A DNA stretch of 32,000 bases from positions 870,001 through 902,000 of the forward strand of contig NC_008789.1 in assembly GCF_000015585.1 (NCBI RefSeq), written 5' to 3'. The position numbers and the translations under genes were made by a program. Shown here in pieces: positions 6,424 to 28,415 of this stretch (its first letter is position 1; the number at the start of each line of letters is the position of its first letter). Under the pieces are notes generated by a model. The model worked only from the letters and a program-made list of their open reading frames with translations, searched no databases and was not told the origin of the DNA. Source of the stretch: Halorhodospira halophila SL1. Lineage in GTDB: Bacteria > Pseudomonadota > Gammaproteobacteria > Nitrococcales > Halorhodospiraceae.

Positions 6424-6433
6424 GGGCGGCTCC

Positions 6434-6469
6434 TGTACAATAGACTCCACATGTACATTTTGTCGTACA
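6434..6469. promoter_or_regulatory. yefM-yoeB operator region: three (T/C)GTACA cores
   Basis: TGTACA lies at 6434..6439 and 6452..6457, and CGTACA at 6464..6469. Centre spacings are 18 and 12 bp. The proximal core abuts the AGGAG Shine-Dalgarno of yefM. Confidence 0.6.
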
Positions 6470-6479
6470 TAACCGAATC

Positions 6480-6990
6480 TGGCAACTTTGCCGATACCCC
6501 CCAGGCGTTGGCCAGTAAGCACCTTGATCGGCCGCCCATCGGCGCGGGTAAAGACATGGTCTTCGGGCTCCTTGGCCACGACATGCTGCCGGAGTTCCTC
6601 GGCGGGCGTGGGGGATAAGGGGATCTCGCGCCGGGTCTTGGGGTGCTTGAGCGTCGTCTGCTGTTCCGGCAGTGCAGAGGAAGACGCTGAACATTCTCAG
6701 TAGCGGCTCCCAGACGGTGGCATTAGGAGCCTTGCCTCTTGTCACACCTGCTTGCCGCAGAGCGCTTGGCTGTGTGTTTAGGTGACTGTTTTTAAAGGTT
6801 TTCCCGAGGCGAGGCGGTGGTGACGAATGGGCGGGACTATTCCAGCCAATCGGGCCGCCGATACCCCTAAAGCGGGGCAAAGCGCTGCGCGATGTGGTGG
6901 CGACGGACTCGCTCTCGCCCAAGCCGCGCAGGTAGTCCTCCAAGGCATGGTCAGATCCCCTTGGGCACGGGGGCAACCCGGCCGGACGCG
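6480..6990 (-). pseudogene. Degraded tyrosine-recombinase (phage-type integrase) remnant
   Basis: One frame (~6520..6657) reads TLKHPKTRREIPLSPTPAEELRQHVVAKEPEDHVFTRADGRPIK, the K-T-x-R-x-(I/V)-PL ... VF ... G.P pattern of integrases. Another frame (~6900..6950) reads ALEDYLRGLGESESVATTSRSALPRF, which is core-binding-domain-like. No catalytic HxxR/Y region remains. Confidence 0.35.
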
Positions 6991-7015
6991 AACAGGGAGG
7001 CGCCAACGAGCCACC

Positions 7016-7422
7016 TTACGGGATCGACCAGTCCTCAACGACCAGCCCAGGAACCCGGTCGAACTCCGGTTTATTGGCGGTAACCACCACTAAATCCTGC
7101 GCGCGAGCATGCGCTGCGATCCATAGATCATTGGCGCCAGTAGGCGTGCCGGCACGCTCCACGTCGCACCGTATCGCTGCATACTCGGCTTCGATCGGCC
7201 TTTCCAGGGAAAGGATCGTAAGGGCGCGCAGAACCGCTCCCATCTGCTGGCTTAGCCTCGCCGCGCCTTCCTTAGCGGCACCGTAGCGCAGCTCTCCGGC
7301 CACAATGAGGCTGGTACAGACTGCACCTCACCAACGCCCCGAACCCGGTTGGCCACGGCACCGCGCGGTCGCGTAATCAGCGCCGAGACCATGTTGGTAT
7401 CGAGCAGGTAGCTCGGCACCAT
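7016..7422 (-). pseudogene. vapC: PIN-domain toxin VapC, frameshifted
   Basis: The N-terminal frame from the ATG at 7422 reads MVPSYLLDTNMVSALITRPRGAVANRV. The C-terminal frame (7303..7016) reads (AVCTSL)IVAGELRYGAAK...GANDLWIAAHARAQDLVVVTANKPEFDRV. The two frames differ by one nucleotide, with the switch between ~7300 and 7328. Confidence 0.75.
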
Positions 7423-8031: not shown

Positions 8032-8916
8032 GTGCACGGCATGGCGTTTCCCTGGCTGTCCGGTCCTGATACCCTTACCACCTATGTGCCCTCAGGTTCA
8101 CCGTTGCCTAAGCATACCCCGTCGACCATTATCCTCCCCGGTTACGAGCGAACGGTCCGGGACATCGCCTCGGCGCTCGAGGCAAACGTCCACCCCATCC
8201 GCGACCACTCTACTCTTGAACTTATTAAGTCCAGCAAAGCCCTGGTCTATCGCTGGTCGTGTGCCGAGAAACCGCCCCTTATTATCAAATTCTATTACGC
8301 GCACACCATCAAGGATCGGCTGAAAGCACTCCTGCGCCCCCCCAAATCACTATTACAAACGGCTCTGGCCCTGCGCGCGAAAGGCATTCGTGTACCGCGA
8401 CCCGTCGCCGCAATACAGGTCCATCTAGATTCCCGTAGATATGGCGCTTACATCATGGAGTGCGCGCCAGGAGCAACACTTAGAGAGTGGGGGCGCAAGG
8501 GCCTCCCTGATACTTACCATATGCACCTTGCAGAAGAGATGGGGTTCCTGTGGGGCCTTCTTTTACGCCACAACTACCTTCATATGGACCCCATACGGGG
8601 CAACTTTCTCTACGACACCGGTGGCGCCCTCACCGCTCTCGATATCGATAACATTTACAAACTTCCATGGTTACCAGACACTGTGCGCGCGCGTCGATTA
8701 CTCAAAATGGCACACTGGCATTTGCTTCGATCACCCCAGTTGCTTGGGGACACCCCGGAACGCGAGCTCATCAAGCGTTTTGTTCACGCCTATGCGCGGG
8801 GACGAGGGGTTACGGCTGTCGAGGCTTGGCGAGAATGGCGCCACGTTGTTGATCGGCTTGCTAGGCGAAACCCCCACGCTTATTACGTTTTGCAACGTGT
8901 CCCTCTGAGGCCGTAG
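8032..8916 (+). CDS. Protein-kinase-like fold protein, lipopolysaccharide kinase (Kdo/WaaP) family (paralog A)
   Basis: Motifs: LIIKFY (beta3 Lys), KDRLKALLRP..., GIRVPRPVA, catalytic loop HMDPIRGN (HxDxxxxN) and LDIDN. It lies in the lower-G+C block. Its stop abuts the ATG of the next gene. Confidence 0.6.
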   Translation: MHGMAFPWLSGPDTLTTYVPSGSPLPKHTPSTIILPGYERTVRDIASALEANVHPIRDHSTLELIKSSKALVYRWSCAEKPPLIIKFYYAHTIKDRLKALLRPPKSLLQTALALRAKGIRVPRPVAAIQVHLDSRRYGAYIMECAPGATLREWGRKGLPDTYHMHLAEEMGFLWGLLLRHNYLHMDPIRGNFLYDTGGALTALDIDNIYKLPWLPDTVRARRLLKMAHWHLLRSPQLLGDTPERELIKRFVHAYARGRGVTAVEAWREWRHVVDRLARRNPHAYYVLQRVPLRP

Positions 8917-9867
8917 ATGATTAGACACCACCGGGATATTAGTTACACCGTCGTCGTTCCGGTCTATAACAAGGCTCCTCATTTGGCGCGTTGCCTCGAC
9001 TCGATCCTCCAGCAACAGCGCCAGGACTTGGAAGTCATCGCGGTCAACGACGCTTCTACCGACTCAAGTCTCACTGTACTCGAGGATTATCAGCATAACT
9101 TACCAATCCGGATTTTTAGCCGTGACCAACCTGGCCCGGGTGGATACGCCGCTCGTAACCTGGCGATCGCGAATGCAAGATCAGAATGGATCGCGTTTTT
9201 GGACGCGGACGACACCTGGGAGAAAGGCTATTTAACCGAACTGGACGCCTTAAGGCGACGATTCCCAGAAGCTGACATAATCGGGACCGGTTATAGGATC
9301 ATCGATCCAGAAACGCAACACGACCACCGCTTTACGCGGCTGAACCGCAGCGGTGACCAACGCTGGATAAGCTTAAATAATTTCATCGATAGCTACTTGA
9401 ACCGTGGTGGCTGCTTTCAAACCTCTGCGACCGCAGCTCGCCGGAGCACGCTTTTAGCCGCTGGAGGCTTCCCAGAAAAAACGGCTCGCCAGGGTGGCGA
9501 CGTTGACACCTGGCTCCGCTGCATGCTCGTCGGAACCGGCGGCGCGTGGTCCCCTTCTGTCAAAATGCGCTATCACCGTGACGCGGTTAACCAGGTGACC
9601 GCGAACCCGGATAACCTGCGCCAACCTCACCCAGTGGCGACCACTGCTGCTTCGTATGCGCAAGCACTTCACGATCGCCAGCAGAAGCGACTTCTGCGTC
9701 GACTTGGCAACAAAAAGGGCCTAAAACGCGCACGTGATGCCGCAGCTGCCGGGCTCTATGACTACATTTTAGTAGCGGAATTAAACCGGTTCGACGCCGT
9801 CTACTGGCTTCACCGGGCCTTACTACCAGTTAAGAACATAGTCGCAAAAGGGCATCGGTTTGTTTAA
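8917..9867 (+). CDS. Glycosyltransferase family 2
   Basis: VVVPVYNKAPHLARCLDSILQQQ..LEVIAVNDASTDSS ... AARNLAIANARSEWIAFLDADDTW, which includes the GT-A DxD motif. Confidence 0.85.
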   Translation: MIRHHRDISYTVVVPVYNKAPHLARCLDSILQQQRQDLEVIAVNDASTDSSLTVLEDYQHNLPIRIFSRDQPGPGGYAARNLAIANARSEWIAFLDADDTWEKGYLTELDALRRRFPEADIIGTGYRIIDPETQHDHRFTRLNRSGDQRWISLNNFIDSYLNRGGCFQTSATAARRSTLLAAGGFPEKTARQGGDVDTWLRCMLVGTGGAWSPSVKMRYHRDAVNQVTANPDNLRQPHPVATTAASYAQALHDRQQKRLLRRLGNKKGLKRARDAAAAGLYDYILVAELNRFDAVYWLHRALLPVKNIVAKGHRFV

Positions 9868-11257
9868 CACACACAAAGCGTACTGGCGATCTATCCTTCC
9901 CCCCTTTGAGCCTTGGGCAAATGTCCGACTCGCGATCGCTGATCGCATTGGCTTCCTTGCCTTGCTCCTCATAGCCTTCACAGGGCTGTGGATCGGCGAT
10001 TTATACCGTCTTGGCCTGGCATTGGTGGTGGTTGCTTTCTTGATAGCCGCCGTGGACCTGTGGCCAAGCATGAAGCGCAGCGCTCTGTTTTGGGTCGGCG
10101 TCGCCTTCGTGCTCTTCGCTACGATACGCCACTGGGTGGCTGTGGTGGAGTTGGGCATCGATATGGTGGACTCGCCACCCAAGACCTCACAAATGATCCG
10201 CACCTCTCCGCTCCTGGTCGCTTTCGCGGCGATATGGCTCCGTGGGGACGAACAACGTCTAGTGTGGTTTCTGTCGGCGACGTTACTCGGTGCAATAGCT
10301 TGGCTTATTACGTCGACTCATTGGGACGCGTTTATTGAAATGTTCCGCAACTGGGACTGGAGCAACGCGCGTCGAGAGCTGTACGAAGGGAGCACCAACC
10401 GCACCCCATTTATTTATCTAGTTCTCAGCCTGGCTCTTATTACAATCGGCACTGGCTTTGTCGTACGATGCACCCATGTGTGGTGGCGTGCTGGCCTTTT
10501 CATCGCTTCCCTGACAATGGCCGTTGGATTCTTGTCGCTTACCTTGACCATCGAGACGCGTGGTGCCCAAATCGCAGCATTTGTGGCTTATGGGTTGCTT
10601 GCTGCGGCAATGGTCAGTAAGGGGCTCCGCCACCTCGGCATCATTAACCGGGGGACCCGCTGGGCATTAACGGCCACAGGGGGCGCAACCATCATTGCTA
10701 TCGGAATCGCGCTCTGGATCACCATCGGCACTAGTAGTGAGCGACTGCACAATACGATGGAGGCAGGAAAAGCGTTAGCACAAAATCCGGACTATCTCCA
10801 CGAGCCTTTCGAAGCGGCACAGGAGCATGACGCCATTCGAGCCGGGAGCGTAGTCCAGCGCCTCAACCTGGTAAGCTTGGCTGCTGATGCGATCGCGGAA
10901 CGACCATTGGTCGGATGGGGAGGAGGCACTAGTCATAAATGGGTACGCGAGTACGGACGTACTGATTTTCACAACTGGTATCTTGATGTAACGGTTGCTT
11001 TTGGTCTGATCGGCGCCGCCCTTTATTTCGGCGGCTTCGTCTATATCCTAGGAAGCAGCATTAGGGCCCGAATGATTCATCGACTTGATCCTCATGTCGC
11101 CCTGTTTGCCTTCAGCGCTACGGCAGCTTGGTTGACAACACAGCTATTCACCACTTGGATCAGCGCCGCACAAGGACGTTTTACATTAGTATTTATTGCG
11201 ACATTGTTGGCGTTCGCTCACACTGCGCGCTGGCTGCCGGAGCTACGAAAAAAATAA
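9860..11257 (+). CDS. O-antigen ligase / Wzy_C-domain polytopic membrane protein (WaaL-like)
   Basis: About 10-12 hydrophobic segments and a large loop ending in ERPLVGWGGGTSHKW...TDFHNWYLDVTVAFGLIGAALYF, typical of the Wzy_C domain. The start is uncertain (TTG at 9860). Confidence 0.7.
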   Translation: MFNTHKAYWRSILPPFEPWANVRLAIADRIGFLALLLIAFTGLWIGDLYRLGLALVVVAFLIAAVDLWPSMKRSALFWVGVAFVLFATIRHWVAVVELGIDMVDSPPKTSQMIRTSPLLVAFAAIWLRGDEQRLVWFLSATLLGAIAWLITSTHWDAFIEMFRNWDWSNARRELYEGSTNRTPFIYLVLSLALITIGTGFVVRCTHVWWRAGLFIASLTMAVGFLSLTLTIETRGAQIAAFVAYGLLAAAMVSKGLRHLGIINRGTRWALTATGGATIIAIGIALWITIGTSSERLHNTMEAGKALAQNPDYLHEPFEAAQEHDAIRAGSVVQRLNLVSLAADAIAERPLVGWGGGTSHKWVREYGRTDFHNWYLDVTVAFGLIGAALYFGGFVYILGSSIRARMIHRLDPHVALFAFSATAAWLTTQLFTTWISAAQGRFTLVFIATLLAFAHTARWLPELRKK

Positions 11258-11320
11258 AGAAAACAATAAAGGGGCTCATTTTATACACCAGAACAGCCCA
11301 CCAAAGGATTAAAGGCATAA

Positions 11321-12010
11321 GTGTACATAAAGACTCTTGGAATAGAGACAGACCGCGTCCCTCGAGTATTCCGGAGCCGGCATCTGCCTGGGAGGCGGAT
11401 TGTTGACATTCTAGGACCAACCGGCTGCGGAAAATCTACGTTTATGGCCCAAACACTCAGAGAACGACATTGGAAATTTAAAAAGGAGCCTGTTCGAGGC
11501 GCCCCGATCAAGGAAATTAGCGAGGAGCGGGCGCGGCTTTTAAACAGACACGCACAGCGTATAGCGAACCAGAATTTTCACCCGCTTTACATTAAGGAGG
11601 CGATCAAGAAAATTTGTTTAGACGAGGCGCTTGAGAAGAAAGACAGCTGTACCATCGTAGACGAAGGCTTCTTCTACTGGTTTATGCATGATCTATACGG
11701 AGCGATCCAGGAAAATCGCACCTGGGTGCACAAGCTGCTGCAGCGACGCGCAATTATTGAACTAATTGTTCCGCCTGAAAAAACAGCCGAACGGGCACTA
11801 TTTCGCTCTAGGAGAGGCGGCAAAGTGGCGCGCTGCCACGCAGAAAAAAGTTATCACGAAATCGTCAAGATGAGCGAGGAACGAATTATTGCGACAAATG
11901 CTTTTACAAAAGCGGTTGAACAACTCGGCGTTCCAGTTGCTCGGATTGACTGGGACGAGAAGACCCTAGCCTTTCACCGGGAAACGATTCAAAAGACGAT
12001 TTGCTCTTAA
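11321..12010 (+). CDS. Orphan P-loop NTPase/kinase-like protein of unknown function
   Basis: Walker A is ILGPTGCGKST and Walker-B-like is CTIVDEGF. It has a GTG start with AAAGG 5 nt upstream. This is the most A+T-rich gene in the window. No family recognised. Confidence 0.55.
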   Translation: MYIKTLGIETDRVPRVFRSRHLPGRRIVDILGPTGCGKSTFMAQTLRERHWKFKKEPVRGAPIKEISEERARLLNRHAQRIANQNFHPLYIKEAIKKICLDEALEKKDSCTIVDEGFFYWFMHDLYGAIQENRTWVHKLLQRRAIIELIVPPEKTAERALFRSRRGGKVARCHAEKSYHEIVKMSEERIIATNAFTKAVEQLGVPVARIDWDEKTLAFHRETIQKTICS

Positions 12011-12112: not shown

Positions 12113-13009
12113 CTAGGCGCTGGTTCTAGATCCCGTGCCATGCCTCGAGAGCCCGAACATTGGCCGCAGGCAGCCACGATAAAACCGCAGCCCCTTATGG
12201 CGCACCCGACGCAACGGCAAATAAATCCACCACAGCACGAACCGCTCCGCATGACCCAGGTCCGCACCCCGCTTCTCCACGTAGGCTGCCCAGACGCGGG
12301 CGAAGTCCTCGTGCGAAAGTCGCAGCTTGAGGAGCAGACGGGCGGCGTTGAAGCAGCTCGGCCGCCCCTCGGCCAGCGCCTCCAGGTCGACGATGGTCAG
12401 CCCCTCTGTCTCGGCGCCCTCCTCCCCCCCTTCCGCAACGCTGGCAACGGCCAGCATATTCCCCATTCGGCAATCCTGTAGATAGACGCCGCTGGCGTGG
12501 AGCCGGGCCTGGAAGCGCCCCACCCGATCCGCCAGCTCGCCCAGCTCCGCACCCTCGTCCGGTTCCGGCAGCGGCTGGGCGTCGACGTAGCGGCAGATGA
12601 GGCAGGCGGCGACGACAGCATCCCCTTGGTAGCGATCCACTGCGCCGAGCGGCTGAGCAACGACACCCGGCAGCGCCCGGTCAAGGCGTCGCCCGGTTAG
12701 CCAGGCCGCCACCGCCGAACGTCGCTTGGTCTTGCCGGGGTTGGTGTACTTGAGCACCAGCGGACCAAACTCCTCCGTATCCAGACGATAGACATCGTGG
12801 CGCCGCCGAGAAGCCAACAACTCGCCGCGTACGGGCAACTCGGCCTCCCAGCGCGGCAGCCACTCCGCCAGCTCTGCCGGGGTCAGCACGCGGCTGTCGG
12901 TCAGCCACAGGGCACCGTCTTCGCCCTGCGCATGGGCAATAGCCGGGTCCTGGTGGGTTTCGGACTGAATACGGGCTTGGAGGTACTGCACGGACGTCGA
13001 ACCTAGCAA
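12113..13009 (-). CDS. Protein-kinase-like fold protein, Kdo/WaaP-like (paralog B)
   Basis: Motifs: LVLKYT (Lys), catalytic loop LQDCRMGN (xxDxxxxN) and IVDLE. The start is TTG at 13009 or GTG a few codons in. It is co-directional with, and 43 nt downstream of, the ParB-like gene. Confidence 0.5.
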   Translation of the reverse strand: MLGSTSVQYLQARIQSETHQDPAIAHAQGEDGALWLTDSRVLTPAELAEWLPRWEAELPVRGELLASRRRHDVYRLDTEEFGPLVLKYTNPGKTKRRSAVAAWLTGRRLDRALPGVVAQPLGAVDRYQGDAVVAACLICRYVDAQPLPEPDEGAELGELADRVGRFQARLHASGVYLQDCRMGNMLAVASVAEGGEEGAETEGLTIVDLEALAEGRPSCFNAARLLLKLRLSHEDFARVWAAYVEKRGADLGHAERFVLWWIYLPLRRVRHKGLRFYRGCLRPMFGLSRHGTGSRTSA

Positions 13010-13052
13010 CGTGGAACGAAGGCCCGTACTTTATCACGCTCGGCTTTTCGAG

Positions 13053-13823
13053 TTAGGCGGCATCGCCCGCCACGCCCAGGGTGTAGGCCGCCAGCCCCCG
13101 TCGCACCGCCTCGCCCGGATCCGGCTCCTGGTACGCGCGCATGCACCCCTCCACCCAGCGGCTGTGCACATGGCGGACGTGCACGACCACCGTGGGCACC
13201 GCCAGGATCTGCGCCATGGCGAAACGGTGGCGGCCGTTGCCCAGACGCACCAGCCGTCCGTGGCGATCGATGGCCACGCGGACGTCGTCCTTCGGCTCTC
13301 CGCCGAGCTCCTGCTGGCCGAGGAAGCCATTGGCGCGCATGTTCTCGTAGGCATCGAACATCCGCTGGAAGTAAGCCTGGAGCTCCTGCTCCCGCTTGAT
13401 CCCTTTGCGAACCGACTTCCCCTGAACCATCTTTCGATAGAGCTTGCGGTACTCGTCGGTCTGCTCGATGGGCAGCCCCTGCTCGAAGATCTGGTAGATG
13501 GTCCGGCTGTGCCGGCAAGCCTCGCGCCAGGTGGGGTCCGTCGCCAGCGGATAGACCAGACGGTCCCAGGGTCCGGCAATGAGCTGGTAGCCACCGAGGA
13601 TGTAGCTCGGCACATCCGCGTAGTAGTGTGCGATGCTCGCCAGCGGCACCCGAATACTGCGCTTCTTGGCGGGAAGGAGACTGGCGTCCGGCTTGCGCAG
13701 CCCCAGGCGTCGAGCAGCGAGGCGGGTGGAGGCCCGGCAGATCGGGCGCAGTGCGCTGCTGGCCAGGGCCCGCCGGGAACGGCGCAGGCGGGCCGGGAGG
13801 TTCAGGGCCGTGATATCGGACAT
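13053..13823 (-). CDS. ParB/sulfiredoxin-fold (ParB-like nuclease domain) protein
   Basis: VRVAIDRHGRLVRLGNGRHRFAMAQILAVPTVVVHV matches the ParBc pattern (I.V...g...i.dG.HR..A...lG...ipv.v). Amino-acid composition is normal (K/E/Y/F-rich), unlike the antisense shadow ORF. The start is taken as Met at 13823, and the track extension to 14081 is rejected. Confidence 0.55.
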   Translation of the reverse strand: MSDITALNLPARLRRSRRALASSALRPICRASTRLAARRLGLRKPDASLLPAKKRSIRVPLASIAHYYADVPSYILGGYQLIAGPWDRLVYPLATDPTWREACRHSRTIYQIFEQGLPIEQTDEYRKLYRKMVQGKSVRKGIKREQELQAYFQRMFDAYENMRANGFLGQQELGGEPKDDVRVAIDRHGRLVRLGNGRHRFAMAQILAVPTVVVHVRHVHSRWVEGCMRAYQEPDPGEAVRRGLAAYTLGVAGDAA

Positions 13824-13968
13824 GACGGGGCTTCGATGGGCCGCTTCGTGATCAAGCGACGGTACCGTACCACTCTCCTGCATGTTGAGCGAAGGCCGCC
13901 CGAGCCGCGTGATCCGGCCGGGAACAACCGCTAGACTGGGCCGTCGGCGCGGACGAAGCGGAGCCAGC

Positions 13969-14778
13969 ATGCGTTGCCACACCCTGGAGGAGACCCCCGC
14001 GGAGGAGCTTCGCACCGCAGCGGAGCGGCTGCTGATGGCCGGCACCGCCCCCGACGGCGCCGAGCTCGTCGCCCGACGCAAGTCCCGCGTCTACCGGTAT
14101 CCGCGCGAAGACGGGCGGGTGGTTTACCTCAAGCACTACTGCGCCACCCAACCCAAGGAGCGGCTCAAGCGGCTTGTGCGCAACCCGGTGCGCAACCTCG
14201 CCCTTTGGCAGCGACTCGACGGCCTCGGGATCGAGACGCCCCACCCGCTGCTCATCGCCGAGCACGGACGCGAGTCGGTGCTGGTCACCGCGGAGGTGGC
14301 GCACACCACCGCCCGGCAGTGGCTGCGCGATGGCCGCCCCCTGGAGCCGTCCCTGCTCGCTGCCCTGGGCACCACCTGGGGACGGCTGCACACCCACGGG
14401 ATGCAATACGTGGACCCGAGCCCGGCCAATGTCTTCATTCCCGACCCGATCCCGGAGGCGCTGGGGCTGCTGGATCTCGACTCGCTCTATCAGGTCGGAT
14501 GGATCCCCGAGTGGCTCGCACGCCAGCGCCTGGGGCAGCTCTTCTCACGCTGGAGCGCCGAGTGCGCCAAGCAGGACCAGCCGCCACCCGACCCGGAGGC
14601 CTTTCTCGCCTTCTGGCAGGCCTACGGGGCCGTCACCGGCCGGCCGACGCGCAGTCACGCCCTGGCCGTGGCCCGGCGGGTCGAGGAGCGGACCGCCCGT
14701 GGCCGCGGCGCCCGCGCGGGTGATCGACTGGCGGCGACCGCCCGGCGATGGCGGGAACGCGTCCTCGAGACCCGCTAG
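13969..14778 (+). CDS. Protein-kinase-like fold protein, Kdo/WaaP family (paralog C; closest to paralog A)
   Basis: Motifs: VYLKHY, KERLKRLVRNP, LGIETPHPL, catalytic loop YVDPSPAN, and LLDLDSLYQVGWIPEW (compare paralog A LDIDNIYKLPWLPD). The start is taken as ATG 13969. Confidence 0.6.
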   Translation: MRCHTLEETPAEELRTAAERLLMAGTAPDGAELVARRKSRVYRYPREDGRVVYLKHYCATQPKERLKRLVRNPVRNLALWQRLDGLGIETPHPLLIAEHGRESVLVTAEVAHTTARQWLRDGRPLEPSLLAALGTTWGRLHTHGMQYVDPSPANVFIPDPIPEALGLLDLDSLYQVGWIPEWLARQRLGQLFSRWSAECAKQDQPPPDPEAFLAFWQAYGAVTGRPTRSHALAVARRVEERTARGRGARAGDRLAATARRWRERVLETR

Positions 14779-14799
14779 CGCCCCCCCCCAGGCGCCGGG

Positions 14800-15348
14800 T
14801 TACGCGCTCCTCGGGCGGGGTGCGTAGTGCAGCACGAACTCGCCTTTCGGCCGTCCGCGCCCGAAACTCTGGAAACCACCGATGCGCTTGGCCGCCCGCC
14901 GGGCCGATTCGTTGTCCAGGCCGCGGTACTCCATGAGGTAGACCGCCATCAATGCGCCCGTGCGGCCGACACCGTGGACGCAGTGGATCACCACGGGCCC
15001 GTTGGCGGGGTCGTCCATCAGCTCGAGGAACGCCGCCACCGTGGATGCATCGGGCACCTGCGCCGAGGGGAGATGCACGTGGCGGATCCCGGCCGGCTCG
15101 AGCGCTGCCGCCTCGGCCTCGGCCCGATGGGCCTTGCGGCGCAGGTCGATCACGGTACGCACGCCCTGCGCCCGGCACAGCGCCACCAGGCGCTGGGGCG
15201 GCATCTCGGTGGTGCGGTAGAGGACGCCCGGCTCGATCGGGATCAGCCGGTAGTAGCCCACCGTCTGGAAAAACGCCTGCCAGCCGTTGAGGAATGCCCC
15301 CTCAAGCAGGTCCACGGTGGCGTGCCAAAGTTTACGTATGCGTTTCAT
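14800..15348 (-). CDS. Cysteine-based (CX5R) dual-specificity/tyrosine phosphatase-family protein
   Basis: The active-site P-loop is VVIHCVHGVGRTGALMAVYLM (HCxxGxxRT). An upstream Asp lies in SAQVPDAS. Confidence 0.75.
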   Translation of the reverse strand: MKRIRKLWHATVDLLEGAFLNGWQAFFQTVGYYRLIPIEPGVLYRTTEMPPQRLVALCRAQGVRTVIDLRRKAHRAEAEAAALEPAGIRHVHLPSAQVPDASTVAAFLELMDDPANGPVVIHCVHGVGRTGALMAVYLMEYRGLDNESARRAAKRIGGFQSFGRGRPKGEFVLHYAPRPRSA

Positions 15349-15419
15349 GATCGATGCAATTGTCTGGGGCTGGCGCGTATCCTACGCCGACACCCTGCTC
15401 AGGAATAGAACCCGCTGTG

Positions 15420-16271
15420 ATGGACACCCCCCGCGACCCGGCTGCTGCCACCCCGACGCCCTCCGTGCCGGAGGCCCTCCACCGCGAGGTCCTGGTGGCC
15501 CGCGACCAGGCGCGCAAGAACGTCTTCCTGCTAAGCCATCAGGGGCGTCAGGTCGTCGTCAAATTCCCCGATCAGAAGGGGCGCGGCTGGCTGCACGCCT
15601 GGTTGATGCGCACCACCGCCGCCCCGATGGTGCGCCACCCGTTGCCCGTTGCGCCGTTTCGTCTCAAGCCCCCGGCGGAGCGTACCGCCTTCGAGGCACA
15701 GCGCCTGCACGCGCTGGCTGAAGCCGGGGCTCCCGTGCCGCGGTTGGTGGGCCTCGGCGACGGCTATCTGATCATGGAGCACGCCGGACAGCGCCTGGAG
15801 AATTGGACACGGGACCTCAACCTGCCGCCTGCCGAGGTCGATGCCCGGGTGCTGGCTGCGGCACGGGCCCTGGCCCAGCTCCACTGCACCGGCGGCTGGC
15901 ACGGAGCACCGCAGTTACGCAACATCATGGTCCGGGACGACGGGAGCGTGGCCTTCATCGACTTCGAGGAGGATCTCTCCATCCTCGAGCCGGAGGCGCG
16001 CCACGCCTACGATCTGCTGCAGTTCCTCTCCTCGCTGGTGGTGCCGCGGGACGACGGCCCCCACCGCCCGGAACTGACCGAGCGGGCCGCCCGCGCCTAT
16101 CTTGCCCTGATGGGCGACGGCCCGTTGGGCCCGCTGGCCGCCTACCAGCGGCGGGCAGCCCGCATCAAGCGCTGGCTGGGCCCGGTGCGGCGGCGCCTGG
16201 GCAAGGACGTGCAGCGGACTTTCGGGGCAATCGACGTGGTGGAGGCCCTGCTCCGCGACCCCGCCCGCTAG
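15420..16271 (+). CDS. Protein-kinase-like fold protein with Asp-to-Ala substitution in the catalytic loop (paralog D; predicted pseudokinase or atypical enzyme)
   Basis: Motifs: VVVKFP (Lys), FEAQRLHAL (alphaC Glu), YLIMEHAG (hinge), WHGAPQLRN in place of HxDxxxxN, and FIDFEED. The start is taken as ATG 15420. Confidence 0.6.
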   Translation: MDTPRDPAAATPTPSVPEALHREVLVARDQARKNVFLLSHQGRQVVVKFPDQKGRGWLHAWLMRTTAAPMVRHPLPVAPFRLKPPAERTAFEAQRLHALAEAGAPVPRLVGLGDGYLIMEHAGQRLENWTRDLNLPPAEVDARVLAAARALAQLHCTGGWHGAPQLRNIMVRDDGSVAFIDFEEDLSILEPEARHAYDLLQFLSSLVVPRDDGPHRPELTERAARAYLALMGDGPLGPLAAYQRRAARIKRWLGPVRRRLGKDVQRTFGAIDVVEALLRDPAR

Positions 16272-17134
16272 TCGGCGGTCCGCTCCAGCCCACCCCGGAG
16301 GGCCTGCCCGAGGGCCGCGATGCGCCGGGCGTCCCCGCCCACCCAGCGGGCCACCCCAGCCATCACTCCCTGTATGCGCCGGGATCGCGACTGGTAGCGC
16401 TCCAGGCATCCGCGCGCTTGCGCGCCACCGGCGGTCTGCAGATAGGCCACCAATGCCTCTTCGGCCAGCGACACCTGGGGCGGGTGCTTCTTGCCCCGCA
16501 GGATCACCAGTGAGGAGAGAAACTTGACGATGTCGTTGGCGGCACATACCTCCGCAGGCACGGCCCGGAGGTCTTCTTCGAAGTCGATCAGGTGGATGGC
16601 CCCGGCCTCATCGACCAGCACGTTTCGGATGCGGGGGGCGCCGTGCCAGTGCCCCTGGGCGTGGAGCGAACCAAGCAGCTCGGCGGCCGCCACCACCTGA
16701 TCGCCGCAGGCGGCCCGCGGCTCGGTCGCCCGCCGCAGCTGCCGCTCGAGCGGTGTGCCCGCGGCCTCCATCACCAGATACCGGTTGGCCTTCACCCCCA
16801 CCAGCCGCGGCACGGGCGCCCCGGCACGGCGCAGCGCGTCGAGCCGGCCGGCCTCGAACAGGACCCGCGGTCCAGGCGCGGCCATTTGAAACGGCTCCAG
16901 CGGCAGCCGTTCACCGGCCATCGTCGAGGCGCTCATGCGCATGGCCTGGGACTTGATCCAGCTCCGCCCCTTGTCGTCCGGGAACTTGACGACCAGCTTC
17001 CGGCCATCCTGCTCCAGCTCAAGCACCGGCTTCCGGGCCTGCCCGGCCAACCCTTCGATCTGCTCCTGCAGCGCAAGCGGGACGGGGGGAAGAACCTCGG
17101 GGGGCGCGACTGCACTGACTGTCGACTGGTTCAT
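16268..17134 (-). CDS. Protein-kinase-like fold protein, paralog of 15420..16271, with the same Asp-to-Ala substitution (paralog E)
   Basis: Motifs: LVVKFPDDKGRSW, FEAGRLDALRRAGAPVPRLVG, WHGAPRIRN, LIDFEED and FLSSLVILR, collinear with paralog D. ATG at 17134. The track extension to 17926 is antisense to PAP2 and was rejected. Confidence 0.6.
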   Translation of the reverse strand: MNQSTVSAVAPPEVLPPVPLALQEQIEGLAGQARKPVLELEQDGRKLVVKFPDDKGRSWIKSQAMRMSASTMAGERLPLEPFQMAAPGPRVLFEAGRLDALRRAGAPVPRLVGVKANRYLVMEAAGTPLERQLRRATEPRAACGDQVVAAAELLGSLHAQGHWHGAPRIRNVLVDEAGAIHLIDFEEDLRAVPAEVCAANDIVKFLSSLVILRGKKHPPQVSLAEEALVAYLQTAGGAQARGCLERYQSRSRRIQGVMAGVARWVGGDARRIAALGQALRGGLERTAD

Positions 17135-17233
17135 GCGTGCGATTCTATGGGTTCCGCTTCTCTCGCGCCACCTGCGGGAAATCGCTACAATCCCGCACGT
17201 TTTGTCCACTGACGCCACCCCGGGATATCCAGG

Positions 17234-18079
17234 ATGCAGCACACCTACCGACGCCTTCTCGCAGGATCGCTCGGCATCGCTGTGCTCGTCGGGTTGAGCG
17301 GCGCTCCCGCCCCTACACACGCGGCATCCGGCGACACCCCGGGCCAGGCGGAATCCGCCCCCGGCGAGTACACGTACTGGGGCAACTTCCTGCGCATCCC
17401 GGCCCGCGCCGCCGGCGAGCTGGTGCGCACGGATCCGGAGGGGCTGCGGCGCAACGCCATCGCGGTGGGCTCCATCGCCGCCGCCTTCGCCCTCGATCAG
17501 CAGATCCGCGACACCATGCAGGACGACCTGCGCGGGCGCGATAGCGACGAACTCACCGATATCCTCTACGAGGTCGGGCGCCCGAAAGTCGCCCTGGCCG
17601 GTTTCGTCGGCGGCTACGCCTACAGCTTCCTGGCCCGGGATCGCTACTTCCGCGAGACCCTGCACCTCTCTTTCCAGTCCCTGCTGATCACGCAGGTCAT
17701 CACCGATACCACGCGGAATGTCGGGCGCGAACGGCCACGCAACAGCCCCGACGACGCCTTCAACTTCGGCAACCGCGGCGGGCAGTCGTATTTCTCGGGG
17801 CACGCCTCGGGGACCTGGGCGGTGATGACCGTACTGGCCTCCCGCTATCCGCACGCGCCGGTCCAGTGGGGCGCCTACGGGCTGGCCACCGCAGTCTCGC
17901 TCTCCCGCGTGCACGATGACGGGCACTGGACCTCGGATATCGTTACGGGTTCATTGGTCGGCTACGGCATCGGGCGACTCACCGTGGCCCTGGATCCTTT
18001 CGAGAGCGACCACGTCCACCTGACCCCGCACCGGTTCGAGGACGACGACTGGGGCGTGGGCCTCCACGCCCGTTTCTAG
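17234..18079 (+). CDS. PAP2-superfamily membrane phosphatase with signal peptide (candidate lipid A / undecaprenyl-PP phosphatase)
   Basis: Signal-like N-terminus LLAGSLGIAVLVGLSGAPAPTHA. PAP2 motifs TRNVGRERP (KX6RP-like), FSGHAS (SGH) and SRVHDDGHWTSD (SRX5HX3D). About six hydrophobic segments. Confidence 0.75.
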   Translation: MQHTYRRLLAGSLGIAVLVGLSGAPAPTHAASGDTPGQAESAPGEYTYWGNFLRIPARAAGELVRTDPEGLRRNAIAVGSIAAAFALDQQIRDTMQDDLRGRDSDELTDILYEVGRPKVALAGFVGGYAYSFLARDRYFRETLHLSFQSLLITQVITDTTRNVGRERPRNSPDDAFNFGNRGGQSYFSGHASGTWAVMTVLASRYPHAPVQWGAYGLATAVSLSRVHDDGHWTSDIVTGSLVGYGIGRLTVALDPFESDHVHLTPHRFEDDDWGVGLHARF

Positions 18080-18099: not shown

Positions 18100-19995
<1,896 letters not shown>

Positions 19996-20058: not shown

Positions 20059-21141
20059 GTGACGCAAGTCGTCCTACAGATCCTCTTCGCCTTTGCGCTG
20101 ACCGCCGTGTTGTTGCTGGTCCTGCGCCGGCCGGCCCTGAAGGCCGGGCTGGTGGACCGGCCCTGTGGGCGCAAGCGCCACGGGCGCGTGGTGCCATTGA
20201 TTGGCGGGGTCTGCATCCTGCTCGGGTTCGTCGCCGCGAGCCTGCCGGCGGACTTCGGGCTGCGCGATTACCAGGGCCTGTTCGCCGGCATGGCGGTGCT
20301 GCTCATCGTGGGGGTGGTCGATGATCTGATCGATATCGACGCCTGGATCAAGTTCGGCGCCCAGGTGGTCGCCGCACTGCTCATGACCGTGTGGTCCGGC
20401 CTGGTGGTGGAGGACCTCGGGCAGCTGCTCGGTCCCCACGTGGCATTGGAGTTGGGCGCCCTGGCCGTGCCCTTTACGGTCTTCTGTGTGGTCGGCCTGA
20501 TCAACGCCGTGAACATGTTCGACGGCGTCGACGGCCTGGCCGCCGGCACCGTGGCCGCCGCCCTGGGCTGGCTGGTGCTGGCCGGTGCGGTCAACGGCGG
20601 CGCCAGCTGGCTGGTGCTGGCCGGGCTGTTCCTCGCCTCCGTCTGCGCCTTCCTGATCTTCAACATGCGCAACCCCTGGCGGCGCAAGGCGGCCTGCTTC
20701 CTGGGGGATTCAGGGAGCATGATGCTCGGCTTTGCCCTGGCCTGGTTCGCCGTAGAGGCCGCCCAGGGCGACCACGCCCTGCTGCCGCCGGTGGCCATCG
20801 CCTGGATCCTCGCCCTGCCGGTGCTCGACACCCTGACCCTGATGGGGCGGCGCATCCTCCGCGGCCGCCACCCGTTCCACCCGGACCGTGAGCACCTGCA
20901 CCACATCTTCTACCGCGCCGGCTTCACGCCGGGCCAGACCGTCACGGTGCTGGTCCTGGCCTCGTTGGCGCTGGGGAGTATCGGGGTGGTGGGCACCTGG
21001 TTGGGGGTGCCCGAGTGGGTTCTGGCCGCCCTCTTCGTGCCGGTGGCCGCGGCCCATCTGCTGGCCCAGGCGCGGGCGTGGCGCTTTGCGCGGCTGATGC
21101 GCCGCCAGCTGCGCTGGGCGCGCTCCCGCCTGCGGGGGTGA
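20059..21141 (+). CDS. wecA: Undecaprenyl-phosphate sugar-1-phosphate transferase, MraY/WecA family (GT4)
   Basis: LKAGLVDRPCGRKRHGRVVPLIGGV, VVDDLIDI and NAVNMFDGVDGLAAG are hallmark WecA/WbpL motifs. About 10-11 TM segments. Confidence 0.8.
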   Translation: MTQVVLQILFAFALTAVLLLVLRRPALKAGLVDRPCGRKRHGRVVPLIGGVCILLGFVAASLPADFGLRDYQGLFAGMAVLLIVGVVDDLIDIDAWIKFGAQVVAALLMTVWSGLVVEDLGQLLGPHVALELGALAVPFTVFCVVGLINAVNMFDGVDGLAAGTVAAALGWLVLAGAVNGGASWLVLAGLFLASVCAFLIFNMRNPWRRKAACFLGDSGSMMLGFALAWFAVEAAQGDHALLPPVAIAWILALPVLDTLTLMGRRILRGRHPFHPDREHLHHIFYRAGFTPGQTVTVLVLASLALGSIGVVGTWLGVPEWVLAALFVPVAAAHLLAQARAWRFARLMRRQLRWARSRLRG

Positions 21142-21265
21142 CTGCGCGGCGGCCCGGGGCAGGCTGCGACGAGGGCCCACGCGCGTTCGGGCCGACTGCG
21201 CATTGAGAATTATTCGCAAATCGTGCATGCTGGCTTCAACATTGCCACATCGCGCGGGAGCGCTC

Positions 21266-22393
21266 ATGGTGGACTACACGGCATCACCCCTGCTCGAGCT
21301 CAGTAACGTCCACTGCTGCTACGGCGGCACCACCGCGGTCTATCAGCTTAGCCTGCGCGTCATGCCCGGGCAGATCGCCTGCCTGCTCGGCCCCAGTGGC
21401 TGCGGCAAGACCACCACGCTGCGGGCCATCGCCGGCTTCGAGCCGCTGTGCAACGGCGAGATCCGCGTGCGCGGCGAGCCCCTCTCGGTGCCGGGCTACG
21501 TGATGCCACCCGAGAAACGGCGCATGGGGATGGTCTTCCAGGACTACGCCCTCTTCCCGCACCTGAACATCTACGACAACATCACCTTCGGCCTGCGTAA
21601 GCTCAGCCGCCGCGATCGGCGTCGGCGCGCCGACGAGCTGCTGGAGCTGGTGGACCTGCAGGGCTACGGGGAGCGGTTTCCCCACGAGCTCTCCGGCGGG
21701 CAGCAGCAGCGGGTCTCCCTGGCCCGGGCGGTGGCCCCGCAGCCGCAGCTGGTGCTGCTCGATGAGCCCTTCTCCAACCTGGATGTGGAGCTGCGCGAGC
21801 GGCTCAGCCGCGAGTTCCACGACATCTTCCGCGATCAGCAGATCACCGCCATCCTGGTCACCCACGACCAGCACGAGGCCTTCGCCATGGCGGATGAGAT
21901 CGGCCTGATGCGCGACGGCCGCATCGTGCAGTGGGACACCCCCTTCAACCTCTACCATGAGCCGGCGGACCGCTTCGCTGCGGAGTTCATCGGCCAAGGC
22001 AGCATGATCTCCGGCACCCTGATCGACGGCGAGCGCATCCAGACCAGTCTGGGTACCCTGCGCGGCAGCCACGGCTTTCCGTGGCCGGCCGGGACCCGGG
22101 TGGACGTGCTCCTGCGCCCGGACGACGTGCGCATGGGCGAGGCCCCCTCGGGGCTCTACGGCCGGGTCGTCAAGAAGGCGTTCAAGGGCGCCGAGACCCT
22201 CTACACCCTACGCACCCCGGACGGCGTCGAGCTCCTTGCCCTGGCGCCGAGCCACAGCGACTACGACGTGGGCGACGACGTGGGCCTGACCATGGACACC
22301 GAGCACCTGGTGGCCTTCCCCGCCGACGGCGAGGTGCAGGCGGCGGTGGAACAGCCCACCCGTTTTCCGGTCCGCGCCGTCAACGTCGGCTGA
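21266..22393 (+). CDS. ABC transporter ATP-binding protein, PotA/CysA/FbpC type with a C-terminal TOBE-like domain; no adjacent permease or binding protein
   Basis: LLGPSGCGKTTTLRAIAGFE, MVFQDYALFPHLN, LSGGQQQRVSLARA and LLDEPFSNLD. GGGAG lies 5 nt upstream of ATG 21266. The track start 21203 is less likely. Confidence 0.8.
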   Translation: MVDYTASPLLELSNVHCCYGGTTAVYQLSLRVMPGQIACLLGPSGCGKTTTLRAIAGFEPLCNGEIRVRGEPLSVPGYVMPPEKRRMGMVFQDYALFPHLNIYDNITFGLRKLSRRDRRRRADELLELVDLQGYGERFPHELSGGQQQRVSLARAVAPQPQLVLLDEPFSNLDVELRERLSREFHDIFRDQQITAILVTHDQHEAFAMADEIGLMRDGRIVQWDTPFNLYHEPADRFAAEFIGQGSMISGTLIDGERIQTSLGTLRGSHGFPWPAGTRVDVLLRPDDVRMGEAPSGLYGRVVKKAFKGAETLYTLRTPDGVELLALAPSHSDYDVGDDVGLTMDTEHLVAFPADGEVQAAVEQPTRFPVRAVNVG

Positions 22394-22463: not shown

Positions 22464-23771
22464 ATGCGCTGGACCCCCTTGACCGCTGCGGCCCTCGCCA
22501 CCCTGCTGCCGCTGACCGCGGCCGCCAACCACCACCCTGCCGGCTCGGCGCTGGGCTTTGGCGATGCCACTCGCTTTGCCGACACCCAGGGCAGCAAGCA
22601 GAACCCCGCCGGCCCCATCGCCGCCAGCGACCGGGGCGTGCGCATGGGCGTCTTCGCCCTCGGCCTCTCCTACGAGCTGGGCGATGTCGCCGACTTCAGC
22701 GACGACTTCGAGGCGCTCGGGGAGGAGCTCGAAGACCTGGAGCGGCTGCTCGAGGAGGTGGAGTCGGGGGACGTCGATCCCGACAACGCCGAGGACGAGA
22801 TTGAGTCATTCCAGGCCAATGTGAATGAAATCCTCGACCGCATCGGTGAGGACGGCTACCTGACCGCCGGGGTCACCGGGCAGTTCGTGCCCTTCCCCTT
22901 CGAGACCACCCAGGACGCCCTGCGCGGCTCGCTGCTCATCGATCTGGACTACAGCCTGCGCGGGCACATCTCGGTGCTCCGGGGGGAAGACCTCGACCTG
23001 AGTATCGACGACCAGGATGACGCCGGGGACGCTTTGGACACCCTCGACGGCTTCGGCGGTTACGTCCGCAGCGCCGTCACCCGGACGTTCACCCTCGGCT
23101 ACGGCTCCGCCGTCTACGAGAACCGGCAGGGATTGCTCTTCGCGGGGGCGCAGCTCAAGCACCACCAGGTGGAGCTCTCGCGGATGGCGGTGGGCTTCGA
23201 TGACGACCCGGGCAGCCAGCTCAGCGACGAATTCCGCGAGAACGCCGAGACCGACTCGGATCTCGGGGTGGATCTGGGGGTGATGTGGGTCAGCGACCGG
23301 TACCGGGCCGGGGCCAGCGTGGCCAACCTGATCGAGCCCACCTTCGACTACCCGGCGGTGGAGGACGACGACACCTTCGACGCCGCCGCCGAGCGCGGCG
23401 AAATCGACCGGGATGAGTCCTACCGCATGGAGCGCCAGCTCAGCGTCGAAGGAGCGGTCCACACCGACGACGGACGCTGGCTGCTGGGCGGCTCGCTGGA
23501 TCTCAACCCCGCCGACGGGCCCTTTGCCGCCGGCTCCGAAGACGCCTACCAGTGGTTGACCGTGGGCGCCGCTTACCGTTCGCCCCACGCCGCCCTGCCC
23601 GGATGGCGACTGGGCTATCGGCAGAACCTGACCGGCTCGGAGCTCGGCTACCTGACCGGCGGTGTGACGCTCTTCCGCGTCCTGAGCCTGGATGCGGCCA
23701 TGAGCACGGAGACGGTGGACTCCGTGCCGCGGGCGTTCATGCTCAACGCCGGCGTGGGGCTGCGCTTCTAG
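22464..23771 (+). CDS. Secreted acidic outer-membrane beta-barrel protein (TraF_2-like family suspected)
   Basis: The signal peptide is MRWTPLTAAALATLLPLTAAA. The C-terminal half has alternating beta-strand patterns, and it ends in the OMP-type terminus AGVGLRF. It has a long Asp/Glu-rich helical insert. Confidence 0.5.
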   Translation: MRWTPLTAAALATLLPLTAAANHHPAGSALGFGDATRFADTQGSKQNPAGPIAASDRGVRMGVFALGLSYELGDVADFSDDFEALGEELEDLERLLEEVESGDVDPDNAEDEIESFQANVNEILDRIGEDGYLTAGVTGQFVPFPFETTQDALRGSLLIDLDYSLRGHISVLRGEDLDLSIDDQDDAGDALDTLDGFGGYVRSAVTRTFTLGYGSAVYENRQGLLFAGAQLKHHQVELSRMAVGFDDDPGSQLSDEFRENAETDSDLGVDLGVMWVSDRYRAGASVANLIEPTFDYPAVEDDDTFDAAAERGEIDRDESYRMERQLSVEGAVHTDDGRWLLGGSLDLNPADGPFAAGSEDAYQWLTVGAAYRSPHAALPGWRLGYRQNLTGSELGYLTGGVTLFRVLSLDAAMSTETVDSVPRAFMLNAGVGLRF

Positions 23772-28412: not shown

Positions 28413-28415
28413 GGT

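Follow-up and report, generated by a model that had tools for sequence, protein, structure and literature searches.

Phosphorylation of lipopolysaccharide (LPS) controls the stability of the outer membrane and the resistance of bacteria to cationic antimicrobial peptides. To our knowledge, the enzymology of this modification is limited to kinases of the WaaP, WaaY and KdkA type, to LpxK and LpxT, and to lipid A phosphatases of the PAP2 type. Core clusters with several kinases are already known, for instance in Pseudomonas. In P. aeruginosa and P. syringae the LPS core cluster contains the heptose-kinase paralogs waaP-wapP-wapQ-PA5006 and the gene order msbA-PA4998-waaL (PMC8005017). Here we describe a locus of Halorhodospira halophila SL1, contained in a 32,000-nucleotide stretch of contig NC_008789.1 (positions 870,001 to 902,000, hereafter the window), in which five kinase-fold genes, named A to E, occur with a dual-specificity-type Cys phosphatase (DSP), a PAP2 phosphatase, a protein resembling the ParB/sulfiredoxin (Srx) fold, a glycosyltransferase, an O-antigen-ligase-family protein, MsbA and a WecA-like transferase. 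Every one of these genes carries a generic annotation or is called a 'hypothetical protein'.

The H. halophila locus resembles the Pseudomonas cluster in that several Kdo/WaaP kinase-fold paralogs are grouped with genes for core glycosyltransferases and an O-antigen ligase and with msbA (PMC8005017; the WaaP structure is reported in PMC6147952), and in that an uncharacterised kinase-like gene stands directly beside msbA. The analogy with the Pseudomonas core-kinase paralogs, drawn in an earlier note on this DNA, is an apt one (PMC8005017), as is the placing of the B-to-PAP2 block among envelope or LPS genes, between an operon of A, a family-2 glycosyltransferase (GT2) and an O-antigen ligase (Wzy_C) on one side and PAP2-msbA-wecA on the other. 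Unlike the Pseudomonas genes, however, the H. halophila kinases score below or barely at the Kdo cutoff of Pfam, D and E are without the catalytic Asp, no waaC or waaF heptosyltransferase genes were identified in the window, and the DSP, PAP2 and ParB/Srx-like genes are interleaved with the kinases. In keeping with the earlier note, no characterised locus matches the H. halophila block gene for gene. With somewhat better than even confidence, we read the locus as a neighbourhood in which LPS core and lipid A are assembled and exported, a patchwork of small transcription units and not one dedicated system, operating by the mechanism proposed further below. Its identity as an LPS locus is drawn from the matches to the GT2, Wzy_C, PAP2, ABC exporter and Kdo families, all within 13 kb.

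A single coherent system had been proposed in the earlier note. In that case kinases as writers, phosphatases as erasers and a ParB-like component dependent on NTP would be interdependent parts of an integrated, previously undescribed envelope phospho-modification system, which we judge unlikely. The genes are tightly packed into ~6 kb with small intergenic gaps, their order is kept in at least three H. halophila assemblies (SL1 and L002 included), and the pairing of the ParB-like gene with B is conserved. Partial combinations at a distance would also fit such a system, namely a DSP-PAP2 gene pair on a Mesorhizobium plasmid, a Y_phosphatase3-family Cys-phosphatase beside a Bud32-like gene in a Chromatiaceae metagenome-assembled genome (MAG), and a Natronorubrum plasmid that unites PAP2, ParB-like, MsbA-like exporter and O-antigen-ligase genes. 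Yet D/E, the phosphatase and the ParB-like gene are combined in no examined locus outside H. halophila. By co-occurrence outside the strain, the check that the earlier note had set, the proposal largely fails. D/E homologs were surveyed at 15 genome loci and on several metagenome contigs; none of them adjoined a ParB-like gene or PAP2, and a Cys-phosphatase of a different family stood beside a D/E homolog in the one distant Chromatiaceae case only (L018). The 17 further loci of the ParB-like family were without A-to-E-type kinases and phosphatase, except that one close relative had B as a partner; the ParB-like gene of Halorhodospira halochloris lies in a different context, and a metagenome scan for close relatives of the DSP found none. 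Moreover, the strand alternation seen in the earlier note, with transcription direction flipping at almost every gene, is confirmed; the block is not one operon, and its seven direction changes speak against co-regulation as a unit. What recurs outside H. halophila are sub-modules: D/E with msbA, the ParB-like gene with B, and the ParB-like gene with glycan-biosynthesis genes. Only these recur, and comparative genomics does not bear out an integrated phospho-modification system.

The most distinctive of these sub-modules involves D and E, which keep the outline of a kinase active site without its catalytic base. In HMMER alignments the D loop HGAPQLRN is set against HGDLTTSN of Bud32 and the E loop HGAPRIRN against HRDVKPSN of MKK7, Ala occupying the catalytic Asp position in both, and in the hhalign comparison the D/E loop falls on the 'DP' of the corresponding A/C segment. 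Both proteins retain the Asn and, further on, IDFE. Homologs at ~30-40% identity were collected by a profile scan of one genome per species and by metagenome protein look-ups; the former, run with the D/E alignment, returned no Halorhodospira, even though its search patterns occur in the window; the source species may be masked in, or missing from, the collection scanned, and the absence of close relatives there is not evidence of absence. A word-index protein search with D gave two homologs, and a plasmid tblastn gave one unannotated Rhizobium match. The corresponding loop reads HGRPALRD in Shewanella and in the metagenomic contig L006, HGGAQIKN in a Planctomycetota MAG, HGRPNLKD in Rhizobium rhizoryzae and LSQAFARN in Neisseria and Moraxellaceae, and IDFE is invariant across the aligned family. 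Judged from these alignments, loss of the catalytic Asp is a trait of the D/E family. Because this residue is missing, D and E are not canonical kinases, contrary to what the earlier note had assumed; most likely they are ATP-binding non-canonical enzymes or accessory factors of the pseudokinase type. None of the curated NCBIfam models captures the family: D, E and their homologs match Bud32 best, across the catalytic loop and IDF(G/E), at 20-53 bits (53 for the Shewanella homolog) against a cutoff of 125, the Asp of HGD being replaced by Ala, Arg or Gly.

The genomic partner of the D/E family, unlike that of Bud32, the ATPase of KEOPS, is msbA/lpxK. The nine Shewanella species all have comEC-msbA-lpxK followed, after a short gap, by the D/E homolog; contig L006 has msbA-lpxK, a Trm112p-like gene and the D/E homolog, which in these nine species and in the contig lies ~1.4 kb 3' of msbA-lpxK. 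In the Planctomycetota MAG the stop of the D/E homolog overlaps the start of an MsbA-type gene, so that the two are translationally coupled. Counting H. halophila, the linkage to msbA was found in four lineages. No Kae1 gene was noted next to D/E homologs, in a survey in which no search was aimed at Kae1. In pseudomonads, too, msbA and waaL enclose an uncharacterised gene, described as a 'toluene tolerance protein / kinase' (PA4998, PSPTO_4985; PMC8005017) and likened here to D/E by position and description only. A separate observation comes from the uncultured Chromatiaceae MAG mentioned above (L018, 1827-3548), in which the Y_phosphatase3-family Cys phosphatase (E=4e-65) lies directly 5' of the Bud32-like gene, with a sulfatase and a methyltransferase as flanks. 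The latter gene, a weak and more distant relative of D/E, has the loop HGNLRPSN with Asn for the catalytic Asp; independently of H. halophila, a Cys-phosphatase and a kinase-like gene lacking the Asp are thus paired a second time.

For the five genes taken together, the kinase-like fold that the earlier note had proposed is supported, weakly, by Pfam, NCBIfam and profile-profile comparisons, which place them in the Kdo/WaaP-APH-Bud32 branch. In Pfam, D exceeds the Kdo (PF06293) gathering cutoff (23.8 bits, cutoff 21.3) and E stays below it (20.4), whereas APH (PF01636, cutoff 23.2) is matched by B (28.7 bits) and E (29.1) over profile positions ~2-110 of 239, that is, the N-lobe. C matches Kdo below the cutoff (16.6 bits, E=0.0055), the sole profile match of A is APH (E=0.053), neither A nor B matches Kdo, and the RIO1 model of Pfam matches D and E. 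With the NCBIfam Bud32 model (TIGR03724) D scores 35.2 bits (E=8e-9), E 34.6 bits and C 21.8 bits (E=1e-4). NCBI gives D the name 'lipopolysaccharide kinase InaA family protein'. Pairwise BLASTP joins A with C (31% identity, E=1.7e-14) and D with E (45%, E=2e-60) and sets B apart from the other four. At the profile level, hhalign relates A/C to the D/E family with a probability of 86% (E=4.8e-6) and the catalytic loops in register, and relates B to A/C (E=2.3e-4), whereas B compared with the D/E family gave no significant match. The genes form three subfamilies, the A/C paralogs, the APH-like B, and the Bud32/Kdo-like D and E; five equivalent paralogs are ruled out by the same comparisons. The earlier claim that all five align on HxDxxxxN plus a downstream DxD/E holds in full for A only (HMDPIRGN, LDID). 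B (LQDCRMGN, VDLE) and C (YVDPSPAN, LDLD) are without the His and keep Asp and Asn, and D and E are without the Asp. Because the catalytic Asp, the Asn for Mg binding and the Asp of DxD/E are all present in A, B and C, these three are candidate kinases of the WaaP/WaaY/KdkA kind. Database searches with single proteins added little: PDB sequence searches with B and C gave no meaningful match, and plasmid tblastn with B gave none.

These same family matches raise another explanation, in our opinion improbable, by which the locus would be a protein-phosphorylation signalling set, its RIO/Bud32-like Ser/Thr kinases and its DSP regulating envelope biogenesis enzymes or something unrelated, with LPS sugars not being the substrates. 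Bud32 is indeed the best NCBIfam match of C, D and E, and RIO1 is matched by the latter two. The SL1 annotation names C and E as Ser/Thr protein kinases (C in full as a 'Mn2+-dependent serine/threonine protein kinase'), and TpbA, the solved structure nearest to the DSP, appears in the PDB under the name of protein tyrosine phosphatase. The Bud32 and RIO scores, however, fall far short of the family cutoffs (35 bits where 125 are required), D passes that of Kdo/WaaP, and D and E lack the catalytic base, hence are not ordinary protein kinases. Furthermore, their recurrent neighbours are msbA and lpxK and not signalling genes, and A lies inside a glycosyltransferase-ligase operon. B is annotated in SL1 as a 'phosphotransferase'.

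The ParB-like protein has no match in Pfam or NCBIfam, and a PDB sequence search with it gave nothing meaningful. It had seemed extremely rare, with four relatives in a word-index search, a view overturned when 1.84 billion cluster representatives were scanned exhaustively with HMMER: 2,686 relatives were found at E<=1e-3 and 569 at E<=1e-10, so that the family is a large one without annotation. Among 45 aligned members no column other than H199 and R200 is invariant, G197 being at least 90% conserved, within a motif G197-R-H199-R200-F-A that reads NGRHRF here and GGNHRF in the family consensus. An AlphaFold2 model built on these 45 sequences (pLDDT 90.1, pTM 0.86) replaced a poor one built on four (pLDDT 69), and in it the GxHR sits at the junction of strand 191-193 and helix 198-207, a strand-to-helix turn like that of box II or the P-motif. 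Essentially all of the top ~40 Foldseek matches to this model in the PDB have the ParB/Srx fold, at E values of 0.09-1, among them sulfiredoxins, ParB, Noc, KorB, PadC, SbnI, Atu1540 and PF0380-like proteins, the best probabilities being those of Arabidopsis Srx (6ky4, 0.91) and of SbnI with ADP (6nr6, 0.90). The alignments are short (64-87 columns, rmsd 3-4.3 A, TM at most 0.48 on the target). When the family profile was compared with the PDB, GnHRlaiA aligned to GvHRytsl of SbnI at a non-significant E=0.57. The model thus points to a divergent ParB/Srx-type nucleotide-binding core in the C-terminal third (~65-90 residues), the part for which the fold named in the earlier note can be retained, whereas for the N-terminal ~160 residues no relative was detected.

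ParB-fold proteins include the ATP-using enzymes SerK, SbnI and Srx, and a 2025 survey of the ParB-CTPase fold recorded ATP-binding members, members not acting on DNA and methyltransferase fusions, and mentions no glycosyltransferase, sulfotransferase or polysaccharide/LPS contexts (PMC12704722). The H. halophila protein shares with the free serine kinases SbnI and archaeal SerK and with sulfiredoxin, its top structural matches, a small ParB-type nucleotide-binding core with GxHR (GCHR in Srx, GVHR in SbnI) and the absence of a helix-turn-helix (HTH) or dimerisation domain. It differs from them in that superposition covers ~65-90 residues only, in that there is no ParBc Pfam match, and in a context of glycan biosynthesis, not of siderophore, cysteine or peroxiredoxin repair. 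An identity as ParB proper was rejected, there being no HTH domain and no ParBc match and the neighbours being kinase-like and LPS genes; so was an identity as sulfiredoxin, the position of the catalytic Cys in GCHR being Arg (GRHR).

Genomic contexts across the family point to surface glycans. Members lie directly 3' of MsbA-type exporters (L034, L035) and adjoin sulfotransferases (L035, L038), a GT4 (L032) or a GT1 glycosyltransferase (L038). On three Halobaculum plasmids the ParB-like gene follows a Gfo/Idh/MocA oxidoreductase gene, with an epimerase and a flippase nearby and, on two of the three, an annotated glycosyltransferase; on a Natronorubrum plasmid it stands between PAP2 and a sugar transferase, and the same plasmid has an MsbA-like ABC gene (E=1e-73), aglF and two O-antigen-ligase-family genes. 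Fusions were found of GT1 to the ParB-like domain (P0073, P0078), of the ParB-like domain to an S-adenosylmethionine (SAM) methyltransferase (P0116, P0141, P0148) and of an enolase-superfamily domain to the ParB-like one (P0039). Other members have uninformative contexts. B is the sole kinase-fold neighbour found for the family: on metagenome contig L026 a ParB-like gene with 75% identity lies 13 bp ahead of a B homolog (E=2e-108) that keeps the LQDCRxGN and DLE motifs. The gene of H. halochloris, on a short contig, stands beside an RDD-family gene and an IS200-like gene, the latter following it. On another metagenome contig (L033, 547-2041) two tandem ParB-like paralogs lie beside an IS630-type (DDE_3) transposase. 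WbdD of E. coli O9a is a bifunctional kinase-methyltransferase that caps an ABC-exported O-antigen. The ParB-like members fused to SAM methyltransferase or GT1 domains, or found beside ABC exporters in glycan loci, recall it in architecture only, their NTP-binding module being ParB/Srx-like and not protein-kinase-like.

The two phosphatases reported in the earlier note were both recovered. The first is clearly, by its sequence, a Cys-based DSP: it has the P-loop HCVHGVGRTG (HCX5R) and matches PTP-NADK (57.2 bits, cutoff 27, E=1.8e-15), Tc-R-P (57.6 bits, E=2e-15) and DSPc (37.0 bits, cutoff 33.5, E=3.5e-9) in Pfam. Its closest solved relative is TpbA of P. aeruginosa (E=5.5e-11), the P-loop and the upstream Asp being aligned, with VPDAS of the DSP set against VDDAE. 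TpbA (PA3885) resides in the periplasm, its target being the diguanylate cyclase TpbB. The H. halophila enzyme differs in standing among LPS genes and in that a simple hydropathy scan, which is not a dedicated predictor, detected no signal peptide or transmembrane (TM) segment, the N-terminus MKRIRKLWHATVDLLEGAFLNGW being without a hydrophobic core. The nearest plasmid homolog of the DSP (30% identity) was found on plasmid p_2 of Mesorhizobium loti (L043, 6001-7369), where it overlaps a PAP2-family gene by 17 bp and is followed by a TMEM165/GDT1 gene and a cation-transporter gene; from this single case, a functional DSP-PAP2 pair is possible.

The second phosphatase matches PAP2 in Pfam (53.3 bits, cutoff 27.2, E=3e-14), and its motifs FSGHA (PSGH-like) and SRVHDDGHWTSD (SRx5Hx3D) are intact. 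Comparison with the PDB gave generic matches only. Read by eye, its N-terminus (…LLAGSLGIAVLVGLSGAPAPTHA/AS) is probably like a Sec signal peptide, and no 19-residue window exceeded 1.6 on the Kyte-Doolittle scale, in a scan that gave 5 such segments in MsbA and 10 in WecA. The enzyme is therefore probably soluble and periplasmic. An integral-membrane lipid A phosphatase of the LpxE/LpxF type was rejected as its identity, there being no TM-like segment.

In the assembly-and-export reading that we favour, A, C and B would, like WaaP, WaaY and KdkA, transfer phosphate from ATP to sugars of the nascent lipid A-core, or of a lipid-linked glycan, at the cytoplasmic face of the inner membrane. The ParB/Srx-like protein, probably co-transcribed with B, would be an enzyme that binds NTP and comes from a family of glycan loci, having a phosphate-binding GxHR motif like that of the serine kinase SbnI and of the ATP-dependent sulfiredoxin, and would probably add or activate a further substituent on the glycan modified by B. 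D and E, which keep the nucleotide and Mg ligands and have lost the catalytic base, may act at the step of lipid A-core completion or flipping. MsbA would then flip the product, after which PAP2, with its putative signal peptide, would trim phosphate in the periplasm, from lipid A or core or from undecaprenyl-PP. The cytoplasmic DSP would reverse one of the phosphorylations, on a sugar, a lipid or a protein, its substrate being the least certain step. A bolder proposal, which we regard as rather doubtful, makes the ParB-like protein, working with B, the founding example of a widespread, NTP-dependent glycan-modifying family of bacteria and haloarchaea, a ParB-fold sugar kinase or phospho-/nucleotidyl-transferase. 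D and E would in that case be MsbA-associated pseudokinases or non-canonical ATP enzymes that couple lipid A-core completion, or its phosphorylation state, to flipping, and DSP and PAP2 would be the cytoplasmic and the periplasmic eraser, respectively.

Several points weigh against the assembly-and-export mechanism. The Pfam scores of A and C are sub-threshold, and none of the five kinases reaches an NCBIfam cutoff. The ParB/Srx assignment rests on Foldseek E values of 0.09-1 and on the non-significant SbnI profile match (E=0.57). The D/E-msbA link is absent at the Neisseria, Moraxellaceae and two metagenomic homologs. We know of no demonstrated link of the DSP to LPS, and TpbA, its closest characterised relative, is a periplasmic protein-tyrosine phosphatase in c-di-GMP signalling. 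Finally, insertion sequence (IS) elements and toxin-antitoxin genes border the locus, part of which is a low-GC island, and some of the gene adjacency may be accidental.

The coordinates of the genes are collected in Table 1. The ORFs listed in the earlier note exist at or near the positions it gave, with starts refined for the ParB-like gene, C, D, E and PAP2. GC3 is 0.78-0.93 in the genes from B to wecA and 0.65-0.75 in overlapping alternative ORFs, and long alternative ORFs on the opposite strand have an inflated GC1 (0.83-0.89); because GC3 separates real from spurious ORFs in GC-rich DNA, the proposed frames are taken as the true ones. Public gene calls on identical DNA agree with them. 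The DSP ORF is identical residue for residue on NRRO01000004.1 (GCA_016583685.1) and on two Logan contigs, the NRRO assembly being that of H. halophila strain 9630, whose genome has a G+C content of 67.9% (PMC8877833). In SL1 the consecutive accessions ABM61576-61581 include B (ABM61576), C (ABM61578), DSP (ABM61579) and E (ABM61581).

Table 1. Genes of the H. halophila locus, with positions in the window.
Feature	Position	Strand	Remarks
Kinase-fold gene A	8032..8916	+	294 aa; first gene of the A-GT2-ligase operon, inside the low-GC island
GT2, family-2 glycosyltransferase	8917..9867	+	Glycos_transf_2 E=2.6e-31
O-antigen ligase/polymerase-family membrane protein (Wzy_C, WaaL-like)	9860..11257	+	PF04932 Wzy_C on identical public gene; at least 9 hydrophobic segments (hydrophobicity scan)
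Small Walker-A P-loop NTPase (GPTGCGKST)	11321..12010	+	229 aa; AAA_33 E=3.4e-5, below cutoff
Kinase-fold gene B, APH-like	12113..13009	-	298 aa
ParB/Srx-like protein	13053..13823	-	256 aa
Kinase-fold gene C	13969..14778	+	269 aa; alternative start 13882
Dual-specificity-type Cys phosphatase (DSP)	14800..15348	-	182 aa
Kinase-fold gene D	15417..16271	+	284 aa, probable start; ORF opens at 15354; NCBI protein also 284 aa
Kinase-fold gene E	16268..17134	-	288 aa, not the 552-aa ORF
PAP2 phosphatase	17234..18079	+	281 aa from ATG at 17234
msbA, MsbA-type lipid A/LPS ABC flippase	18100..19995	+	Shewanella-locus orthologs E~1e-146 (Pfam there: ABC_membrane and ABC_tran)
wecA-like polyprenyl-phosphate sugar-1-phosphate transferase	20059..21141	+	Name from the earlier note; at least 10 TM segments (hydrophobicity scan); GC3 0.93

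From B to wecA the order is B and the ParB-like gene leftward, C rightward, DSP leftward, D rightward, E leftward, and PAP2, msbA and wecA all rightward, with successive intergenic gaps of 43, 145, 21, 68, -4, 99, 20 and 63 bp. D and E are convergent and overlap by 4 bp, and msbA starts 20 bp 3' of PAP2; upstream, the gaps are 0 bp between A and GT2 and -8 bp between GT2 and the ligase gene. The minimum set of transcription units is A-GT2-ligase (possibly with the P-loop gene), ParB-like-B, C, DSP, D, E and PAP2-msbA-wecA.

The four genes at 8032-12010 (A, GT2, ligase and P-loop NTPase) stand out by their low GC (0.49-0.56) and GC3 (0.51-0.60) against ~0.68 and ~0.9, respectively, for the genome, A having a GC3 of 0.60 and the P-loop gene, with 0.51, the lowest GC in the window. 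This island is probably a horizontally acquired outer-core/O-antigen module; it fits the usual variability of such genes, and some of the adjacency may be recent. The P-loop gene, for which a public call starts later (188 aa), matches the PDB at the level of the P-loop only, with the weak AAA_33 match and no closer family; it could be a P-loop kinase and, as such, a sixth phosphotransfer enzyme of the neighbourhood. On the left flank a DDE transposase (642-2372, minus strand) and an rve integrase fragment (2433-3086, minus strand) are followed at ~5500-7300 by toxin-antitoxin pairs (a FitA-like RHH/PIN, a PhdYeFM/YoeB and another PIN), from which it follows that the LPS block borders a mobile, variable region.

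Such surroundings bring up an accidental juxtaposition, which would leave unrelated APH-type small-molecule or antibiotic phosphotransferases, a stray DSP and a ParB-like gene beside msbA-wecA in a variable, island-like region. We hold this to be quite unlikely, even with the IS transposases and three toxin-antitoxin modules immediately 5', the low GC at 8.0-12.0 kb (0.49-0.56 against ~0.68; GC3 0.51-0.60), the APH matches of B and E and the alternating strands. The genes from B to wecA have native GC3 (0.78-0.93), the APH matches are confined to the N-lobe and generic to the fold, the D/E-msbA adjacency recurs in distant lineages, and members of the ParB-like family turn up repeatedly in glycan loci of two domains of life.

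Beyond wecA the window contains an ABC ATPase with a TOBE_2 domain (21203-22393, plus strand), a TraF_2-family outer-membrane beta-barrel-like protein (22464-23771, plus strand) and, on the minus strand at 23768-29800, an operon for an Mrp/Mnh-type cation/proton antiporter with three Proton_antipo_M subunits and an MbhD/MnhB/MbhE fusion. This last stretch has a GC of 0.71-0.78 and a strong A>T skew on the plus strand, attributable to the Ala/Leu-rich composition of membrane proteins. It had been considered as an unusual GC-rich, A-skewed element at 23.7-30 kb, with plus-strand ORFs lacking a Pfam match; these ORFs are spurious, and the stretch is an ordinary Mrp operon read from the minus strand. 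The 32-kb window gave no match in Rfam and tRNA scans.

Two features of the locus appear to be undescribed: that an msbA-linked Bud32-like family has lost the catalytic Asp throughout, and that a large ParB/Srx-like family recurs in glycan loci of Bacteria and Archaea. If neither the glycan-modifying role of the ParB/Srx-like protein nor the MsbA-linked role of D and E were true, the locus would be one more lineage-specific LPS core cluster. If the ParB/Srx-like protein is a glycan-modifying enzyme, a fold familiar from DNA partition, sulfiredoxin and serine kinases would gain a place in the glycobiology of the cell surface, in Bacteria as well as in Archaea. If D and E are MsbA-linked pseudokinases or non-canonical enzymes, they would offer a handle on the coupling of lipid A-core completion to export, and might explain the long-unassigned 'toluene tolerance protein' gene beside msbA in pseudomonads.

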